NCBI GenBank assembly: GCA_027217645.1
Contig: GCA_027217645.1_4344.1
Reading direction: 5' to 3' (one strand)
DNA: 41,360 nt
From: a phage
In this document: piece after piece, positions 9,787 to 17,944 of the stretch
How the letters are laid out: each line of letters starts with the position of its first letter
How positions within the stretch are numbered: the stretch's first letter is position 1
Program-made: the position numbers and the translations under genes
The notes under the pieces: generated by a model
Databases searched by the model: none
What the model saw: the letters and a program-made list of their open reading frames with translations, nothing else
What the model was told of the DNA's origin: nothing

Positions 9787-9815
9787 TTGACACCTGAATA
9801 GTTAGCTATTATAGT
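9787..9815 (+). promoter_or_regulatory. Sigma70-like promoter, TTGACA-N17-TATAGT class, with palindromic box
   Basis: Seen in sequence: TTGACA (9787-9792), 17 nt spacer, TATAGT (9810-9815); box AATAGTTAGCTATT (9797-9810); upstream of the SSB-like gene. Confidence 0.55.
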
Positions 9816-10554: not shown

Positions 10555-12735
10555 ATGAGTTACCTGTTCTTAGACTTTGAAACATTCTCCGAAGCCGATT
10601 TGAAGAAAGTCGGCTCCTACGCTTACGCCGAACATCCAACCACCGAAGTTCTAATCTGCACATATGCTTTTGACGACGAGCCTGTGCAGGTATGGGATTG
10701 CACCAACGGCAGCGACATGCCGGGGGATTTGCACCGCGCGTTACGCCGTCTGGTGAAACCAAATAGTCGCATTAAGATGGTATGGCACAACGGCTCAATG
10801 TTCGACAGGCTCATCATGAAACACTGCTGGGGCTTTGATATTCCCGTAAGCAACACCATTGATACGATGATTTGGGCGTTTCGTCACGCGCTGCCGGGTT
10901 CACTTGATGCGCTGTGTGAAGTGCTTGGCGTGTCTGCTGACAATGCAAAAGATAAACGCGGCAAGGCGCTGATTCAGCGTTTCTCTAAACCGACACCGAA
11001 GAATTACAAAATCCGCCGCTACACCGCAGAAACACACCCGGACGAGTGGGCGCTGTTCATCAAGTACGCCGTGAGCGACATCACTGCGATGCGTGAAGTC
11101 TTCCATAAGCTGCCGCGTTGGGGTAACTCTGAGTTCGAAGACCGTGTACTGGAACTGGACCAGTTAATCAACGACCGCGGGTTTAAGGTTGACGTTGCAC
11201 TGGCGGAAGCCGCTATTGAAGCCGTGGAGAAACACAAAGCGCAGTTACAGGAGGAAGCCCAACGCAAATACGGCGGCTCGCTTACTGGTAAGGACTTTCT
11301 GCCGATTCTTCGTGAACTCGCCCCTGCACACCGCATACACAACGCACAGAAGTCGACGCTTAACGACCTGCTGGCGGACGATGATTTACCGGACGACGCA
11401 CGCACAATTATCGAAATGCGCCTCGGGGCCGCGTCCACCGCGTCAACGAAATATAACCCGCTGCTGTTGGGCCGCTCGTCTGACGACCGACGCCGTGGTT
11501 GCATACAATATGGTGGAGCTAAGCGTACGTTACGGTTTGCAGGTAAAGGCTTCCAGCCGCAGAACCTCGCGCGCGGGTACTATCACGATGATGAACTGGA
11601 TAAAGGAATTTCTGCGTTACTTAAGGGCCGCGCTCATCGTCGATTTGACGTAGCCAAGCTAACGGCATCTACCGTTCGTAGCTGCATCATACCGGAAACT
11701 GGACATAAGTTTGTCGTTGCCGATTACTCTAACGTCGAAGGCCGCGGGCTTGCGTGGCTGGCGGGGGAAGAAACCGCGCTAGATACGTTCCGTGCCGGAC
11801 TGGATATTTACTGCGTAACCGCGGGTAAGATGTTCGGTATGGAGCCGGATTACATTAAGAAAGAACGTAAAGATTTGCGCCAGATTGGTAAGGCCTGCGA
11901 ACTTGGGCTTGGCTATGCGGGCGGTGTCGGCGCATTCGTACAGTTCGCCAAGAACCTTGGCCTTGACCTGGTTGATATGGCAAAAACAATGGATGGGACT
12001 TTCCCCGACCACATCTGGGCCGCTACCGCACGTGGATATGAGTGGGCGCGTATTCAGGAAACCAAGCGACCACCACGTCCAGGTGAAAAGGATGACCGAC
12101 CATCATATATTCTTGATAAGAAAGTGTGGCGTACCTGTGACGCTATCAAGCGCATGTGGCGCGAGTCTCACCCGGAAACAGTAGCTTTCTGGCGGGATAT
12201 TGAAGACGCAGCTATGGCAGCTATCCGCAATCCGGGCAAAGAGTTCACCGCAGGGCCGCGGGGAGTTAAGTTTTCGCGCAACGTAGAAACGGACAACAAC
12301 GGCAACAAAGTCGCCGGTTGGTGGCTGCGGATGACGTTGCCGTCGGGCCGCGTTATGTCTTATCCGGGTGTTGGGCTAAGCGTGTCGAAAGAGACAGACG
12401 AAGACGGGAAGGTGTCTACCAACGTGCGCATCAAGTACCAGGGCGAAAACCAGTTAACACGGCAGTGGGGCTTCCAGTACACATATTCCGGTAAACTCGT
12501 GGAAAACTGCACTCAGGCGCTGTGCCGTGATTTGTTGGCTAATGCACTGCTGAACGTCGAAGCAAACGGCTACCCGATTGTGCTTCATGTTCACGATGAG
12601 ATTATCTGCGAGACACCAGATTTACCAGAATACAATGTCGCAGAACTGGAACGATTGATGTGCGAATTACCAGAGTGGGCCGAGGGGTTCCCTCTTGTAG
12701 CAGAAGGCGCGGAGATGAAGCGTTATGCCAAGTAA
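10555..12735 (+). CDS. Family A DNA polymerase with 3'-5' exonuclease domain
   Basis: Track ORF 726 aa; N-terminal exonuclease motif LFLDFETFS; polymerase motif A-like VVADYSNVEGR and motif C-like HVHDEIICE. Confidence 0.9.
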   Translation: MSYLFLDFETFSEADLKKVGSYAYAEHPTTEVLICTYAFDDEPVQVWDCTNGSDMPGDLHRALRRLVKPNSRIKMVWHNGSMFDRLIMKHCWGFDIPVSNTIDTMIWAFRHALPGSLDALCEVLGVSADNAKDKRGKALIQRFSKPTPKNYKIRRYTAETHPDEWALFIKYAVSDITAMREVFHKLPRWGNSEFEDRVLELDQLINDRGFKVDVALAEAAIEAVEKHKAQLQEEAQRKYGGSLTGKDFLPILRELAPAHRIHNAQKSTLNDLLADDDLPDDARTIIEMRLGAASTASTKYNPLLLGRSSDDRRRGCIQYGGAKRTLRFAGKGFQPQNLARGYYHDDELDKGISALLKGRAHRRFDVAKLTASTVRSCIIPETGHKFVVADYSNVEGRGLAWLAGEETALDTFRAGLDIYCVTAGKMFGMEPDYIKKERKDLRQIGKACELGLGYAGGVGAFVQFAKNLGLDLVDMAKTMDGTFPDHIWAATARGYEWARIQETKRPPRPGEKDDRPSYILDKKVWRTCDAIKRMWRESHPETVAFWRDIEDAAMAAIRNPGKEFTAGPRGVKFSRNVETDNNGNKVAGWWLRMTLPSGRVMSYPGVGLSVSKETDEDGKVSTNVRIKYQGENQLTRQWGFQYTYSGKLVENCTQALCRDLLANALLNVEANGYPIVLHVHDEIICETPDLPEYNVAELERLMCELPEWAEGFPLVAEGAEMKRYAK

Positions 12736-12856
12736 ACTGATTATCGCGGTACTGGCGGGATTTGCTGCCGGTGTCTACTGTCACGAGGGTCAATACGGCA
12801 TGATGGTTGCCATATTGGGCATGTTCATCGCAATTTATCTGTGGGTGCTGGAATGA
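12725..12856 (+). CDS. Micro-protein (43 aa), hydrophobic, probable single-pass membrane peptide
   Basis: Hand translation MPSKLIIAVLAGFAAGVYCHEGQYGMMVAILGMFIAIYLWVLE; ATG lies just upstream of the polymerase stop; stop overlaps the next ATG as ATGA. Confidence 0.35.
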   Translation: MPSKLIIAVLAGFAAGVYCHEGQYGMMVAILGMFIAIYLWVLE

Positions 12857-12942
12857 AAATTTACTGGTTTTATGAAGAAGACTGTCGAATCTGCCCGCGC
12901 TGTGGTATTGAACATACGAAACGTGAGGGGTGCGTATTATGA
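12853..12942 (+). CDS. Micro-protein (29 aa) with CxxC...CxxC zinc-ribbon-like spacing
   Basis: Hand translation MKIYWFYEEDCRICPRCGIEHTKREGCVL; ATGA overlaps at both ends. Confidence 0.3.
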   Translation: MKIYWFYEEDCRICPRCGIEHTKREGCVL

Positions 12943-13091
12943 CAATGTTTGTATTTTGGACGATAGTAACCATGCTCGCGCTGTTACTCGGTGCGGGAAT
13001 AGCCGCGATGTTCTGTTACGGCCTGTTCTTTAAGTTTGTCGGTGTCGCCGTTCTAGGAGGGGCTTTCCTTACTTGGGATCTACGCTCATGA
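12939..13091 (+). CDS. Micro-protein (50 aa), hydrophobic membrane peptide
   Basis: Hand translation MTMFVFWTIVTMLALLLGAGIAAMFCYGLFFKFVGVAVLGGAFLTWDLRS; stop TGA overlaps the VRR-NUC ATG at 13088. Confidence 0.35.
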   Translation: MTMFVFWTIVTMLALLLGAGIAAMFCYGLFFKFVGVAVLGGAFLTWDLRS

Positions 13092-13372
13092 CTAAAGAGG
13101 GCCGCGTACAGAAATACGCAAAAGACCGATTCGAGGCCCTTGGCGGCCTCGTTCGCAAACTCTCCTACGAGGGGCGTTCCGGCGCCCCAGACCTGCTGGT
13201 AATTCTCCCCGGCGGCATAGTCTGGTTCGTCGAGGTTAAGAAAGACGAGAACACGAAGCCAGACCCGCACCAGCTACGGGAACATGAGCGGATGCGTAAA
13301 CGTGGTGCGAATGTTTTTGTCGTTGGTTCGTTTAAACAGGTTGACGACCTAATAGCTAGCTATTATAGTTAG
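13088..13372 (+). CDS. VRR-NUC domain nuclease (PD-(D/E)XK superfamily)
   Basis: Track ORF 13073..13372, start placed at the ATG at 13088 coupled to the upstream micro-ORF; GAPDLLVILPGGIVWFVEVKK fits the VRR-NUC catalytic core. Confidence 0.7.
   Translation: MTKEGRVQKYAKDRFEALGGLVRKLSYEGRSGAPDLLVILPGGIVWFVEVKKDENTKPDPHQLREHERMRKRGANVFVVGSFKQVDDLIASYYS
13341..13369 (+). promoter_or_regulatory. Sigma70-like promoter, TTGACG-N17-TATAGT, embedded in the 3' end of the VRR-NUC gene
   Basis: Seen in sequence: TTGACG (13341-13346), 17 nt spacer, TATAGT (13364-13369); contains the perfect palindrome AATAGCTAGCTATT (13351-13364), which also encodes the last residues of VRR-NUC. Confidence 0.5.
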
Positions 13373-13402
13373 TCCTACACCAACAATATAAGGAATTGAG
13401 AA

Positions 13403-13594
13403 ATGAAACACGAATATGACCGCAAACCAGCACGTGACATCGTACCGGGTGACATGATTTTCAACGTTAAGACACGTCAACCTGTTGCCGTTGATACGGT
13501 GTTCGTCGAGTCGAACGGTAAACTGGTTATCGAAGATGTAACGGGTAACGTTACGGCGTTCGGGCGTAAAGAGCTGGTGCTGGTGGCGAAATGA
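13403..13594 (+). CDS. Hypothetical protein
   Basis: Track ORF 63 aa; AAGGA RBS; stop overlaps the methyltransferase ATG as ATGA. Confidence 0.45.
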   Translation: MKHEYDRKPARDIVPGDMIFNVKTRQPVAVDTVFVESNGKLVIEDVTGNVTAFGRKELVLVAK

Positions 13595-14415
13595 ACTATT
13601 ACAATGAATGGGATAAAGGCGCAGCCGCGTGGCTGCGTGAGTTGATAAAACAGGGTCACATACCTTTTGGAGTTGTAGATGAAAGAAGCATTACCGAAGT
13701 TAAGCCAGAAGACCTTGACGGGTTCACCCAGTGTCATTTTTTCGCGGGTATCGGCGGCTGGCCTCTCGCGCTCAGACTTGCGGGAGTTTCGGAGGATACG
13801 CCTCTCTGGACGGGAAGCCCGCCTTGCCAACCGTTTAGCACGGCAGGAAAACAACTCGGACAGTTCGACCCGAGACACCTCGCGCCGGTCTTCCTCGACC
13901 TCATCAGCGAGTGCCGCCCTCCAGTCATCTTTGGGGAGCAGGTTGCGGCAGCAATTGCAAAATCGTGGATGTGCGATTTACAAGCTCACCTGGAAGGAGA
14001 AGACTACGCCGTCGGGTTTGCTGTACTCCCAGCTTGTAGCGTCGGCGCACCGCACAAAAGAGAACGACTCTTCTTTGGCGCGCACGAACTGGCCTACACC
14101 GACAGCGAACGACTTCAGAGGGAGCGGAGAGACAGTGATTCGCACGGACGGGAGGGACAGAACATTCGACAGGCTGGACTACTCAACAGAGCAGGGATTG
14201 AAAGCGAGTCAACCAACCCGCACCACGGCTTCTGGTCAGATGCTGACTGGCTCGGATGCCGTGATGGAAAGTTCCGGCCGGTTGAACCCGGCGCATTCCC
14301 GCTGGCTAATGGGATACCCGCAAGAGTGGGACGATTGCGCGGTTACGGCAATGCCATCGTCCCGCAAGTAGCCGCCGAATTTATAAAGGCGTTTATGGGG
14401 GCCGTAAATGAGTAA
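13591..14415 (+). CDS. DNA (cytosine-5)-methyltransferase
   Basis: Track ORF 274 aa; motif I FAGIGG, motif IV PCQPFS, degenerate motif VI GEQV, motif VIII-like HKRERLFF, C-terminal motif [14 protein letters not shown]; stop overlaps the helicase start. The +1 frame of the same DNA also carries methyltransferase-like motifs (see findings). Confidence 0.7.
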
Positions 14416-15832
14416 GTTTCAAAGGCGCGAATACCAGAAGCTCATGACCTCGTTCATGTTGCAGCACCATCGCTGTAATATTTGGGCGAGCATGGGCGCC
14501 GGGAAGACTGGCAGCGTCCTGTGGGCTTTAAACCGCCTGTTCCGCAACGGGCAACTTACGGACGACGACCGCGTGTTAATTCTCGCCCCGTTGCGCGTTG
14601 CGTCCGGTACGTGGCCCGCAGAACAAGAGAAATGGCAATTCCCTTGTCTGCGTGTCATCGATGCAACCGGTTCTGAGAAGCGCCGCATCGCGGCACTGGA
14701 GTCTGATGCTAACGTGGTGTGCACTAACTACGAAGTTATTGAGTGGCTGATTGACTACTACGGCAAAGACGACTGGCCTTTTACGGTTATCGTTGCTGAT
14801 GAGAGCACGAAGCTGAAATCATTCCGCAGCCGTTCAGGTGGGAGCAAGCGGGCTAAGGCGCTAAGCAAAGTGGCGTTCGGTAAGGTTAAGCGCTTCATTA
14901 ACCTTACAGGCACACCATCGCCTAACGGCCTCAAGGACCTGTGGGGTCAGAACTGGTTTATCGACGCCGGCGAGCGCCTCGGTTCATCGTACACAGCATT
15001 CACCGACCGCTGGTTTAACTCGGTACAGAAAGGTAAGTCAGCGATGGCGCGTGAGTATCATGCGCGCCCGGGTGCGGATAATGAGATTCATCAGAAGATG
15101 AAAGACATCAGTCTCACGATTGACGCCGCCGAGTGGTTCGGATGTGAAGCGCCGATTATTGTACCGGTTGAAATCGACCTGCCGAAGAAGGCGCGCCAGG
15201 CGTACATTGATATGGAGGAGAAGCTATTCGCGGAACTGGAGAGCGGAGAAGTTGAAGCGGCTAATGCGGCAGCGAAGACGTCGAAGTGCCTACAGATTGC
15301 ATCCGGTGCCGTGTATGTGTCAGGGCCAGACGGTGAAGCAACGAAAGACTGGGAGAAAGTGCACGACACGAAACTGGATGCGCTCGAGTCCATTGTTGAG
15401 GAGTTACAGGGGGCGCCGTTACTGGTCGCCTATCAGTTCAAGCACGAACTGGAGCGCATCCTCAAGCGCTTCCCGCAGGCGCAGGCTTTTGCAAAAGGCG
15501 CGAAGGGCAATAAGCAGATGGAAGCGTGGAACCGTGGCGAAATCGAAATCCTATGCGTGCACCCCGCGTCAGCCGGCCATGGTTTGAATTTACAGGACGG
15601 CGGACATCATCTGGCGTTTATTTCGCAAGGCTGGAACCTTGAGCACTATTTGCAGGTTGTCGAGCGTATAGGCCCGGTGCGCCAGAAGCAGGCGGGCCAC
15701 GAGCGACCAGTGTTCCTCTATCACATCGTTGCTAAAGACACGCTGGACGAGGTTGTTGCCTCGCGTACTGACGAGAAGAAATCGGTCCAGGAAGAGTTGC
15801 TTAATTACATGAAGAGACGAGGTAAGAAATGA
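14408..15832 (+). CDS. SNF2-family (DEAD/DEAH-like) helicase
   Basis: Track ORF 474 aa; Walker A MGAGKTG, DEAH-like VIVADESTKL, helicase C-terminal region HPASAGHGLNLQ. Confidence 0.8.
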   Translation: MSKFQRREYQKLMTSFMLQHHRCNIWASMGAGKTGSVLWALNRLFRNGQLTDDDRVLILAPLRVASGTWPAEQEKWQFPCLRVIDATGSEKRRIAALESDANVVCTNYEVIEWLIDYYGKDDWPFTVIVADESTKLKSFRSRSGGSKRAKALSKVAFGKVKRFINLTGTPSPNGLKDLWGQNWFIDAGERLGSSYTAFTDRWFNSVQKGKSAMAREYHARPGADNEIHQKMKDISLTIDAAEWFGCEAPIIVPVEIDLPKKARQAYIDMEEKLFAELESGEVEAANAAAKTSKCLQIASGAVYVSGPDGEATKDWEKVHDTKLDALESIVEELQGAPLLVAYQFKHELERILKRFPQAQAFAKGAKGNKQMEAWNRGEIEILCVHPASAGHGLNLQDGGHHLAFISQGWNLEHYLQVVERIGPVRQKQAGHERPVFLYHIVAKDTLDEVVASRTDEKKSVQEELLNYMKRRGKK

Positions 15833-15966
15833 ACATCATAGCCCCGATTCCGGCATTGCAAAAACGTATCAAGGAACTTGAGGAGGAGGTTCTACGACTA
15901 CGGCAGCAAAGAGACGCCGCTAATGCGCAACTGGCGTTTGTACTGGAGAAGTTATCAGAAGAGTAG
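15829..15966 (+). CDS. Small coiled-coil protein (45 aa), not in the ORF track
   Basis: Hand translation MNIIAPIPALQKRIKELEEEVLRLRQQRDAANAQLAF...; ATG overlaps the helicase stop; ends just before the terminator. Confidence 0.3.
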   Translation: MNIIAPIPALQKRIKELEEEVLRLRQQRDAANAQLAFVLEKLSEE

Positions 15967-15968
15967 AG

Positions 15969-15999
15969 AAAAGGCCCCGTTTGGGGCCTTAGTTTTATG
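15969..15999. terminator. Bidirectional rho-independent terminator between convergent operons
   Basis: Seen in sequence: GGCCCC-GTTT-GGGGCC hairpin flanked by A run on one side and T run on the other; the 31 bp AAAAGGCCCCGTTTGGGGCCTTAGTTTTATG is identical to 28397-28427; tail-fibre stop codon lies in the T tract. Confidence 0.7.
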
Positions 16000-17944
16000 G
16001 CCTAAGATATCTTATTGCGATCTGGCCTGTGAGGGTGACAGGGGAGGTGTTGTTGTTCCTGATATAAACATTAACACTCCCAGATGCGCCTGAGGGACGC
16101 ACAACATCTATAGTGCAACCATTCACCCCTGTTGACGAGTCAGCCATCAGGAAATCCTGATATTGCACGCCAGGCAGGGTTACAGTGCCAATCAATGCAA
16201 CCGCACCAGCGGCAATCGTAACAGAATTGTAATCCACATACACAGGCGAGGACACGCCGTTATGGAACACCGCACCCGCGGTCAAGCCACCAATTACCGC
16301 ACTTGGCGTTCTGTCGATTCTGCTGGTACTGTCTGTCGACATGCTGTAATTGAAAGATGACCCAGCCACAGCCGGTAGCCCGCTGGCCGAAACATTGACG
16401 ATACTTCCGCTCTTGGCGTTAAATAAATACGTATTCGCGCCCGAGCTTTTCACATTGGCGGCATCCGCAGAGAGGGCTACTCCCTTTATGTCTGCCGTGG
16501 AGTTTATAATCTCAAATAGATATGCTTCTCCGGTAGTTAACGTATTAAGCCAGGACGGAATTGACATGCCGTTAAGCACAAACCCAACGCAGTTTTCAAT
16601 AACAAAATCCCCACGTCCTGAAACGTCAATTTTACTGGCTTCATGCTGCATCCCATTAATTGTGACGCCTGGGCATCCTTTGAAGTAAATAGGTTTAATG
16701 TTGCCGATGATGCTTGTGCCGTCGTAGGCGCAGTTCTCAAAGGTGGCGCATTGACTATCTTGCATATCCCACGAGCCGTAGCAGTCCAGTGCGTAACAAG
16801 AACTGTATTTTACGGTAGTTCCGTACTGCTTTTTAAACCCAACATAGCAGTCCCATGCCCAGCAGTTCCTGTACTCCATTAAATATGTAGACGTTACATC
16901 ATAGAAGCCCCAATAAGCACCACGGACAATGACGTTTTCTACTATAAATTTGGTCGCGCCATTAGCAAGCGGATCAATAGACGTGTCGGACGTACCGAAG
17001 TTAACCCCTTTTGCATTTCCAGTGGTTATAGTTGGTTTCCCTGCTTGATAATTAATCCAAAAGTTACGGATAATACCTCCTGGCTGATACCCAGTAGGAG
17101 CATGCTCAAATGCTGCATGGTCGCCTGTACACTGGATGATAGTACCGTAGGAGCCATTTGGATAAGTTCCGGCGCCTTCGATGGTCTGAGTACCAAAGAT
17201 AAGAGGTGCATTGATTATTATTGTGCCTACCGGGAAGACTACATGTTGTAGTGTTGCCAGCGCTTTGTTAGCGGCATCGGTGTCATCCGTGCTCCCGTTT
17301 GCCGTAACTCCGAACCAGCGGGCGTCGACAGGCCCTGTATAACTGCGCTTCCAGCGACGGCCGGACGCATCGACCAGCACAGTTCCGTCATTGTCTGGGG
17401 TTGTCGTATCGGATGAATCTGCGAAGAAATACCCAGAAGCATTATCAAAAATAGAGCTTCTACCGTAGCAGTTAATGCGGTCCGCCGGGCCTGTATATGC
17501 GCGGATATCGGCGTAGTTTGCTGCGCCGATATTATATATACCATCCAATCCAGACAAATCGTCCCTCAAATATGGGTCAGTCCGTGGTTTCCAGTTAGCG
17601 TTTCCTACTGGGTTAAACGATGCGGGGGCAACAACCGGCAACGTACCCGCATACGAGTACCACGTCTTGCTTACAGGGTCATACACTACTTTGTCGCGGT
17701 CATTAACTGTTAATGTACCACCGGTGGAAAAGTCCCACGATACGGGAGAAAAACCAGCATCACGCAACACGGCAGGTAACGTCTTCTGGGTCTGTCCAGT
17801 AACCTGATTTGTCGCGTAATCGATATCAGAGCCACCAGCAACGCCGCCGGATTTACCAGTGATAACCTCGGCTTCAAAAATTTGGTGTTTCTTGGCGGTC
17901 TGTAAATCCGCCAGGCTTAAAACGTCACCGCATCCGCTTGACAT
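15995..17944 (-). CDS. Tail fibre or tailspike (receptor-binding protein)
   Basis: Track ORF 649 aa; last gene of the tail module after the J-like protein; Gly/Asn/Ser/Thr-rich as in beta-helical fibres; AAGAGGA RBS. Fold and any enzymatic activity not established. Confidence 0.6.
   Translation of the reverse strand: MSSGCGDVLSLADLQTAKKHQIFEAEVITGKSGGVAGGSDIDYATNQVTGQTQKTLPAVLRDAGFSPVSWDFSTGGTLTVNDRDKVVYDPVSKTWYSYAGTLPVVAPASFNPVGNANWKPRTDPYLRDDLSGLDGIYNIGAANYADIRAYTGPADRINCYGRSSIFDNASGYFFADSSDTTTPDNDGTVLVDASGRRWKRSYTGPVDARWFGVTANGSTDDTDAANKALATLQHVVFPVGTIIINAPLIFGTQTIEGAGTYPNGSYGTIIQCTGDHAAFEHAPTGYQPGGIIRNFWINYQAGKPTITTGNAKGVNFGTSDTSIDPLANGATKFIVENVIVRGAYWGFYDVTSTYLMEYRNCWAWDCYVGFKKQYGTTVKYSSCYALDCYGSWDMQDSQCATFENCAYDGTSIIGNIKPIYFKGCPGVTINGMQHEASKIDVSGRGDFVIENCVGFVLNGMSIPSWLNTLTTGEAYLFEIINSTADIKGVALSADAANVKSSGANTYLFNAKSGSIVNVSASGLPAVAGSSFNYSMSTDSTSRIDRTPSAVIGGLTAGAVFHNGVSSPVYVDYNSVTIAAGAVALIGTVTLPGVQYQDFLMADSSTGVNGCTIDVVRPSGASGSVNVYIRNNNTSPVTLTGQIAIRYLRP

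Follow-up and report, generated by a model that had tools for sequence, protein, structure and literature searches.

Between the DNA polymerase gene and the VRR-NUC nuclease gene of the phage contig GCA_027217645.1_4344.1 (analysed as a stretch of 41,360 nucleotides (nt), hereafter the window) lie three very short open reading frames (ORFs), ORF1, -2, and -3, which the comparative data identify as genuine protein-coding genes under purifying selection; all three are very probably coding and translated. ORF1 is a 43 amino acid (aa) protein, MPSKLIIAVLAGFAAGVYCHEGQYGMMVAILGMFIAIYLWVLE, encoded at 12725..12856; ORF2 is a 29 aa protein, MKIYWFYEEDCRICPRCGIEHTKREGCVL, at 12853..12942; and ORF3 is a 50 aa protein, MTMFVFWTIVTMLALLLGAGIAAMFCYGLFFKFVGVAVLGGAFLTWDLRS, at 12939..13091, all on the plus strand. 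Each matches a PHROG family over its full length (phrog_10404, E 4.5e-32; phrog_38225, E 2.5e-22; and phrog_14925, E 4.3e-33, respectively). These are exactly the three ORFs of 43, 29, and 50 codons that a preliminary description of the window had placed here, and the ATGA start/stop overlaps it reported are present at 12853-12856, 12939-12942, and 13088-13091. Upstream is the gene for a family A DNA polymerase of 726 aa (10555..12735, plus strand, stop codon at 12733-12735; taken from the ORF list and annotated as DNA polymerase I in relatives), and downstream is the 94 aa VRR-NUC gene (13088..13372, plus strand), identified by its match to PDB 4QBN, whose ATG overlaps the ORF3 stop. The polymerase/ORF1 junction is not of the ATGA type; it is a -11 overlap, with the ATG of ORF1 lying 11 nt inside the polymerase end. 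The best explanation overall, considered quite likely, is that three genuine genes are co-directional with the polymerase and VRR-NUC genes and most likely share one mRNA with them.

The loci compared were gathered around the nuclease (14 from GenBank and 79 from IMG/VR), and 61 of these together with the window form the Guernseyvirinae set of 62. The ratio of nonsynonymous to synonymous divergence (dN/dS), computed by the Nei-Gojobori method and pooled over distinct sequences, is 0.18 in the annotated frame of ORF1 versus 1.2 and 2.3 in the other two frames; the corresponding values are 0.05-0.07 versus 2.9 and 1.7 for ORF2, and 0.16 versus 0.85 and 1.7 for ORF3. As controls from the same genomes, VRR-NUC gives 0.12-0.13 and the last 100 codons of the polymerase give 0.09. 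The third codon position is enriched for variable columns in the ORF1-3 alignments, and the deletions in ORF3 are all in frame (15, 9, and 6 nt, equal to 5, 3, and 2 residues); ORF3 is found in 101 database clusters, each at least 73% identical, of which roughly 90 are exactly 50 aa long. The junctions are likewise conserved: the offset from polymerase to ORF1 is -11 in 43 of the 45 measurable loci, that from ORF1 to ORF2 is -4 in 45/49, that from ORF2 to ORF3 is -4 in 19/21, and that from ORF3 to VRR-NUC is -4 in all 26 ORF3-bearing loci, and the ATGA-coupled arrangement, whose conservation in related genomes had been proposed as a check, is kept in nearly all relatives. Purifying selection confined to the proper frame, frame-preserving indels, and conserved junctions together argue that ORF1-3 encode proteins, as was originally suggested.

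It is extremely improbable that the three are chance open frames or that the real gene of the interval lies elsewhere, and this reading is considered already refuted by the comparative data. Two other ORFs are open in the window, one of 53 aa at 12872-13033 and one of 123 aa on the minus strand at 12602-12973; however, the other plus-strand frames show dN/dS values of 0.85-2.9, the 53 aa ORF is shortened in relatives (21 aa in STP03, 49 aa in Snoke), and the minus-strand frame is interrupted by stops in 38 of 46 distinct relatives. Chance is also opposed by shuffling of the window, as the four-member ATGA chain ORF1-ORF2-ORF3-VRR-NUC appeared in none of 200 shuffles; the longest shuffled chain had three members and was seen in 25 of them. 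ATGA overlaps alone are weak evidence of anything special because they are the commonest junction type in such genomes, with 18 ATGA pairs among the 68 coding sequences of the annotated relative ULINTec2.

Several further candidates were rejected. A structured RNA element in place of the genes finds no match in Rfam with E up to 1 within 12300-13600, and the RNA fold of 13035-13115 is no more stable than shuffles (z = -0.2). A programmed -1 frameshift that would carry ribosomes from ORF1 into the frame of ORF2 is another rejected candidate: the ORF2 frame is open upstream in the window, but no slippery heptamer was seen on reading the sequence, this upstream reading gives a dN/dS above 1, and the frame is closed by stops just before the ATG in loci L003, L006, and L048. 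Metagenome 'fusion proteins' of 68-73 aa that join ORF1 to ORF2 include a poly-G artefact (L175) and a 4-nt GTAT duplication (L176). The former is a run of ten G at about 860-875 and probably stems from sequencing or assembly; the latter is a tandem duplication within ORF1 at about 900-915, is present on three contigs, and may represent a true knockout of ORF1 that arose in nature and left ORF2, ORF3, and VRR-NUC intact.

ORF2 is, by comparison of the relatives, the invariant core of the whole subfamily; it is present in 62/62 Guernseyvirinae loci and in about 445 phage records found by tblastn. It is a soluble, charged type of peptide with Cys at positions 11, 14, 17, and 27 and His at position 21, which amounts to one CxxCxxC cluster and a lone C-terminal Cys. 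The CxxC...CxxC spacing first attributed to ORF2 needs correction, as there is no second CxxC and the pattern reads CxxCxxC...H...C. Over 31 distinct peptides C14 and C27 are conserved in all 31, C17 in 30, and H21 in 29; C11 is kept in 25 and is replaced by Arg in five and by Phe in one. The candidate ligand set is C-x2-C-x3-H-x5-C, comprising a CPRCG knuckle followed by H21 and C27. A zinc ribbon, as initially proposed, is not borne out: ORF2 has a single knuckle only and gives no significant ribbon or knuckle profile match. Pfam returns nothing at cutoff (best ZNF598 C2H2, E 0.22), NCBIfam has no match, and the PDB has no significant match (best E 0.4); the non-significant PDB matches (E 0.4-4.5) fall mostly on CxxC knuckles in proteins that bind zinc, among them Cox5B, Nop10, RpoM, and S27ae. 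A 44 aa in-frame extension of ORF2 searched against a large protein database finds 14 clusters and none outside this phage group.

Among known metal sites, ORF2 has the same total span as the CCHC zinc knuckle (C-x2-C-x4-H-x4-C) and likewise four conserved candidate ligands, but differs from it in its C-x2-C-x3-H-x5-C spacing; it shares CPRCG with the CPxCG knuckle of zinc ribbons, but is without the ribbon's second CxxC. Com of phage Mu and Ogr of phage P2 are small zinc-finger phage regulators of 62-72 aa with CxxC...CxxC sites. They resemble ORF2 in being very small Cys-rich phage proteins encoded immediately 5' of, and overlapping, the gene that they act with or on; however, no similarity between them and ORF2 was detected. 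Metal binding by ORF2 is an even prospect. As a soluble micro-protein it would probably hold the metal ion through C14, C17, H21, and C27, and would probably act with the replication and recombination proteins that are co-translated with it.

VRR-NUC, one of these proteins, matches saNUC from Salmonella phage SETP3 of the same subfamily (PDB 4QBN, E 4.4e-54, residues 2-93) and differs from it at only a few of the 92 aligned positions; its Pfam VRR_NUC match (E 0.0016) is below the cutoff. saNUC is a dimeric Holliday-junction-resolvase-like enzyme, and the recombinant protein alone binds DNA non-specifically and cuts junctions weakly in vitro (PMC4103454). It is the ortholog of the neighbouring VRR-NUC, not of the micro-ORFs, and is relevant to them only through the co-translation of ORF2 and ORF3. 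One hypothesis holds that ORF2 binds metal and serves the VRR-NUC resolvase (or the polymerase) as a dedicated partner or specificity subunit, produced by coupled translation; it would be a universal metal-binding micro-subunit of the Guernseyvirinae replication/recombination machinery and would give the enzyme its junction specificity or activity. This hypothesis is considered rather improbable. It is favoured by the presence of ORF2 throughout the subfamily, by its direct overlap with VRR-NUC in the simplest genomes (by 14 nt in 17 loci), by Cys-rich peptides coupled next to VRR-NUC in distant phages that also have the polymerase-VRR-NUC pair (L074/L132, L085, L064/65, and L067), by the fusion of VRR-NUC to a CxxC-x14-CxxC ribbon in L077/L080, and by the non-specific binding and weak cutting of saNUC on its own. 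However, no homology to ORF2 can be demonstrated for the distant peptides, zinc-like motifs are not enriched beside VRR-NUC in a second phage clade (32 non-identical loci), ORF2 can be separated from VRR-NUC by ORF3, by a 64 aa ORF, or by an HNH gene, and the weak activity of saNUC is ascribed by its authors to a low active fraction (PMC4103454). If true, the partnership would explain why recombinant saNUC (4QBN) is near-inactive and non-specific, and membrane micro-proteins and homing endonucleases would plug into the slot behind ORF2, bounded by ATGA, and be exchanged there while expression of the nuclease goes on undisturbed. The idea that ORF2 would supply the partner which this crystallised, poorly active phage resolvase is missing can be put to the test.

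ORF1 and ORF3 appear to be small membrane-type proteins. Their grand average of hydropathy (GRAVY) scores of 1.35 and 1.60 are the top two among the 154 ATG-initiated ORFs of 25-60 codons in the window, which bears out the earlier remark that two of the micro-ORFs are strongly hydrophobic. ORF1 has a conserved polar YCHEGQYG loop between two hydrophobic stretches, one of about 14 and the other of about 17 residues (Kyte-Doolittle windows up to 2.8); ORF3 has 11-residue Kyte-Doolittle windows of 1.3-2.6 over residues 1-46, an invariant GAG at residues 18-20, an invariant G40, and a near-invariant G41. The AlphaFold model of ORF3 is a single helix from residue 2 to 49 with a predicted local distance difference test (pLDDT) score of 86. 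A hydrophobic helix long enough to span a membrane is thus seen in ORF3 by both window and model, and in ORF1 by its two stretches. Neither protein has a significant match in Pfam, NCBIfam, or the PDB; a match of ORF1 to EMC6 (E 0.0012) was dismissed as a generic transmembrane (TM) resemblance below the cutoff, ORF1 and ORF3 were rejected as paralogs since BLASTP gives no alignment between them, and no homologs of ORF3 more distant than its 101 clusters were found. As small helical peptides, ORF1 and ORF3 would insert into the host inner membrane, where they would act as dispensable host-interaction factors rather than as core parts of replication.

The distribution of these two proteins is patchy, and all significant tblastn matches to ORF1-3 fall within the Guernseyvirinae. 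ORF1 is present in 51/62 loci and 224 phage records (tblastn), and ORF3 in 29/62 loci and 121 records. Among the records with ORF2, ORF1 is found in 103/103 named for Escherichia and in 106/324 named for Salmonella; for ORF3 the counts are 61/103 and 50/324. Disruption of the ORFs in close relatives that retain VRR-NUC had been named beforehand as an outcome that would tell against translated genes, and ORF1 and ORF3 are in fact absent from many such relatives, while ORF2 is absent from none. ORF1 and ORF3 are taken as dispensable accessory genes, with only ORF2 as core, because they are missing from many VRR-NUC-bearing relatives and because the differences are clean cassette differences rather than decay.

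The interval from polymerase to nuclease is modular in its make-up. A 64 aa ORF (phrog_25645; for example L013 2040-2234, L014 2040-2231, and L004 2239-2433) is inserted after ORF2 in 12 loci and stands ahead of ORF3 in at least eight; it has a dN/dS of 0.05, a CAGCTHKG motif, and a weak, sub-threshold match to the A2L zinc ribbon (E 0.0047). Its junctions are of the ATGA type in 18/20 scored, with a -4 offset from ORF2 in 11/12 and to ORF3 in 7/8. Elsewhere ORF3 is replaced by an unrelated 25 aa hydrophobic peptide or by a 165 aa HNH endonuclease, or is absent, and in the last case the ATG of VRR-NUC takes the same place behind ORF2. In many Jerseyviruses the hydrophobic body of ORF1 is missing and its first seven codons are fused in frame to the body of ORF2, giving a protein of 33-36 aa that begins MLSKLIIYYFREEDCRICPRCGIEHTKREGCI; this fusion gene, which has no equivalent in the window, lies at about 1968-2093 in each of L007, L009, L010, L011, and L012. 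Fused and two-gene genomes differ by exactly 128 nt, bounded by a 7-8 nt direct repeat, (C/A)TGATTAT(C), and the event may have been either the loss of this segment or its insertion, the latter with a target-site-like duplication. Comparison of the relatives shows ORF1, ORF3, the 64 aa ORF, and the HNH endonuclease to be interchangeable cassettes whose gain, loss, and replacement take place at the start/stop junctions or next to them, and nearly always leave the short start/stop overlaps in place. The locus offers a clear case of micro-gene insertion, deletion, and replacement exactly at start/stop overlaps, with translation of the downstream enzyme preserved.

The stretch from polymerase to nuclease is also a hot spot of insertion by mobile elements. 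HNH homing-endonuclease genes with short start/stop overlaps follow ORF2 in L006, L010, L048, L049, and L175 and lie between the polymerase gene and ORF1 in L038 and L176, and the polymerase itself carries an intein in several relatives (BPS11T2, f3SE, and SE2). In 20 canonical loci synonymous divergence is 0.90 for the polymerase C-terminus, 0.26 for ORF1, 0.52 for ORF2, 0.33 for ORF3, and 0.49 for VRR-NUC; the low values of ORF1 and ORF3 suggest either recent horizontal spread of cassettes or extra constraint at their synonymous sites.

A more specific role for ORF1 and ORF3, as membrane-active effectors acquired as cassettes (for example to exclude superinfecting phages, depolarise the membrane, time lysis, or block a host defence or protease located in the membrane), is tentative and on the unlikely side. 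The extreme hydrophobicity of both proteins, their patchy presence, in which the two vary independently of each other, the host-name counts given above, and a synonymous divergence below that of the flanking genes, suggesting recent exchange, are consistent with it, as is the enrichment of small TM ORFs at the two positions 5' of VRR-NUC in the second clade (12/53 versus 5/113 elsewhere, Fisher p = 7e-4, over 32 non-identical loci), an only suggestive test that uses crude gene calls and related lineages. Against such a role, neither protein is homologous to any characterised holin, exclusion protein, or toxin, and the lysis genes are elsewhere in the genome: the locus has no holin or lysis-cassette neighbourhood, as the 'lysin' of the 99%-identical ULINTec2 is more than 11 kb away and a second 'putative lysin' more than 8 kb, and none of ORF1-3 matches a PHROG of the lysis category.

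Translation of the chain is predicted to proceed from signals embedded in the coding sequences. A GGAG Shine-Dalgarno (SD)-like element lies within polymerase codons at 12711..12714 on the plus strand, 10 nt 5' of the ORF1 ATG; it is conserved across junction contexts, and the equivalent position is annotated as a ribosome-binding site in phage Snoke. ORF2 has only a weak GGGTG (12843-12847). The last ORF2 codons (R-E-G-C) contain the SD-like element GAGGGGTG at 12925..12932 on the plus strand, 6-10 nt 5' of the ORF3 ATG, and in relatives the same element precedes whichever gene comes after ORF2, be it ORF3, the 64 aa ORF, or VRR-NUC; the HNH gene of BPS11T2 and Kenya-K6 also starts at the same -4 position after ORF2. 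The last ORF2 codons double as the putative ribosome-binding site for whatever gene comes next. The ATG of VRR-NUC at 13088 was correctly described as having no well-spaced SD: the sole strong one, GGAGG at 13056-13060, is 27 nt upstream and outside the usable range, so that ORF3 to VRR-NUC is the only junction of the chain without a usable SD. An in-frame TTG at 13073 was rejected as the true start behind this GGAGG, as it is CTG in several relatives and hence not conserved. No inhibitory RNA structure is found around 13088 (z = -0.2).

In the proposed sequence of events, ORF1 would start 11 nt before the polymerase stop with its own GGAG, ORF2 would start on the ORF1 stop (ATGA) with the weak GGGTG upstream, and ORF3 would start on the ORF2 stop behind GAGGGGTG; in ORF3-bearing genomes, ribosomes terminating at ORF3 would most likely re-initiate at VRR-NUC. 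Termination-reinitiation is most likely required at this last junction because the VRR-NUC ATG has no usable SD, and on balance translation of VRR-NUC appears to depend on coupling to ORF3. Among coupling geometries, close -4 spacing is both the commonest and the most efficient (review PMC12548453). The chain shares this geometry with generic NTGA (-4) coupling, whether by termination-reinitiation or RNA unfolding, and its VRR-NUC start lacks an SD as expected of a coupling-dependent gene; it differs in that ORF1-3 also carry SD-like elements. Genes VII and IX of the filamentous phages f1/M13 encode small proteins from -4 overlapping junctions, the downstream gene being dependent on upstream translation (PMC12548453). 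The two systems share a run of very small hydrophobic phage proteins with -4 junctions, but there is no sequence similarity between them, and ORF1-3 are part of a tailed-phage replication module in which a structural role is unlikely. In f1, the VII and IX proteins cap the virion and measure about 32-33 aa.

It has to be considered whether the three ORFs serve only as a relay that carries ribosomes from the polymerase stop to the SD-less start of VRR-NUC, their peptides being functionless by-products. The absence of a usable SD for VRR-NUC in ORF3-bearing genomes, the retention of VRR-NUC where ORF1 and ORF3 are absent, and the -4 geometry kept at all junctions fit a relay, yet it is judged very unlikely: purifying selection on the amino acids of ORF1-3 is as strong as in the neighbouring enzymes, and near-invariant residues are found in each protein (the ORF2 Cys/His, the ORF1 YCHEGQYG loop, and the GAG and GG of ORF3). 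Furthermore, no relay is needed, because where ORF3 is absent VRR-NUC takes its place behind the ORF2 SD.

A number of points weigh against the preferred reading of ORF1-3 as translated genes for two membrane peptides and a metal-binding micro-protein, joined to VRR-NUC by coupling. The literature on the subfamily yielded no ribosome profiling, no proteomics beyond the virion, and no paper that discusses ORF1-3; in the sole RNA-seq study of a Kagunavirus, annotation is limited to 57 genes. The pairs pooled for dN/dS are not independent of one another. ORF3 is modelled as one 48-residue helix, and both a hairpin and a single span are possible. For ORF2, rare variants lack C17, H21, or C27 (those without C27 being metagenome variants), the spacing fits neither a zinc ribbon nor a canonical CCHC knuckle, and the AlphaFold2 model from a shallow alignment is unreliable (pLDDT 57.6), too poor to judge geometry. 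Coupling may also be dispensable at the starts of ORF1 to ORF3 because these have SD-like elements of their own.

ORF1-3 are already in the databases as lineage-restricted ORFan genes of an ordinary, tightly packed phage organisation. The three PHROG families, all annotated as function unknown, and the GenBank hypothetical proteins UCR81099-81101 of ULINTec2 are the same proteins with the same boundaries and overlaps; hypothetical proteins with identical boundaries are also annotated in L223, phiWAO78-1, EcoPhCCP1, and many others. The expectation that most annotation would miss them therefore fails for recent records. It holds for older ones, as ORF1-3 are without annotation in K1G, K1H, and K1ind1-3, and for the fused form of ORF2, which is unannotated in f3SE, SF4, SE2, and many other Jerseyvirus records. 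In ULINTec2 (L001, MZ997838.1 26558-26991, corresponding to 12939-13372 of the window), ORF3 is labelled 'putative nuclease' and the real VRR-NUC 'hypothetical protein', an off-by-one slip. To the existing records the present analysis adds ORF2 as a universal and often unannotated core, its corrected Cys/His pattern, ORF1 and ORF3 as cassettes, and the use of ORF2 codons as a ribosome-binding site. Its value is mostly for annotation, since many GenBank records lack annotation of a 29 aa gene that is universal in a phage subfamily with uses in therapy and biocontrol; current understanding is unchanged unless a partnership of ORF2 with the resolvase or a host-directed role of the membrane peptides is shown.

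The region is placed by megablast in Kagunavirus (Guernseyvirinae), with 290 related records from Escherichia and Salmonella phages; identity is 99.1% to Escherichia phage MirsaeidiM_Esher4 and 98.8% to ULINTec2. A consensus scan finds a sigma-70-like promoter match upstream of the polymerase gene at 9787..9815 on the plus strand (TTGACA-17-TATAGT, 11/12), a second one (TTGACG-17-TATAGT) at 13341-13369 inside the last VRR-NUC codons, and a strong intrinsic-terminator-like hairpin at 15971-15990. Between the first promoter match and 13341 the scan finds no stronger promoter- or terminator-like site, and nothing strong within the ORF1-3 chain. The match at 9787-9815 is likely the start of a unit with an SSB-like gene, the polymerase gene, ORF1-3, and VRR-NUC, a single mRNA being proposed because the promoter/terminator layout fits. 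Just 3' of the second promoter match is a conserved 63 aa gene (phrog_4879, function unknown; 13403-13594), ATGA-coupled to a cytosine methylase gene at 13591. Farther on, a 45 aa ORF (15829-15966) is ATGA-coupled to the stop of an SNF2-type helicase gene (14408-15832) and is followed directly by the hairpin, which faces a convergent tailspike gene (15995-17944, minus strand).

Small genes also stand beside VRR-NUC in distant phages. Of the Cys-rich proteins among their products, those scanned (from L079, L082, L085, and L090) match no Pfam or PHROG family. Two ATGA-linked TM micro-ORFs lie between the polymerase and VRR-NUC genes in L087; single proteins that join a Cys cluster to a TM helix are found in L079/L095, L090/L100, L082, and L146. 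A peptide with the canonical C-x2-C-x4-H-x4-C pattern is coupled to VRR-NUC in L074/L132 (3337-3486) and a CxxC...C peptide in L085, and in L077/L080 (1498-1911) the CxxC-x14-CxxC ribbon is part of VRR-NUC itself. Among the Cys-rich proteins beside VRR-NUC in such phages, L103 included, a 'C..CN(Q)QGRxC' cluster recurs, in some cases together with a TM helix and in others on its own.

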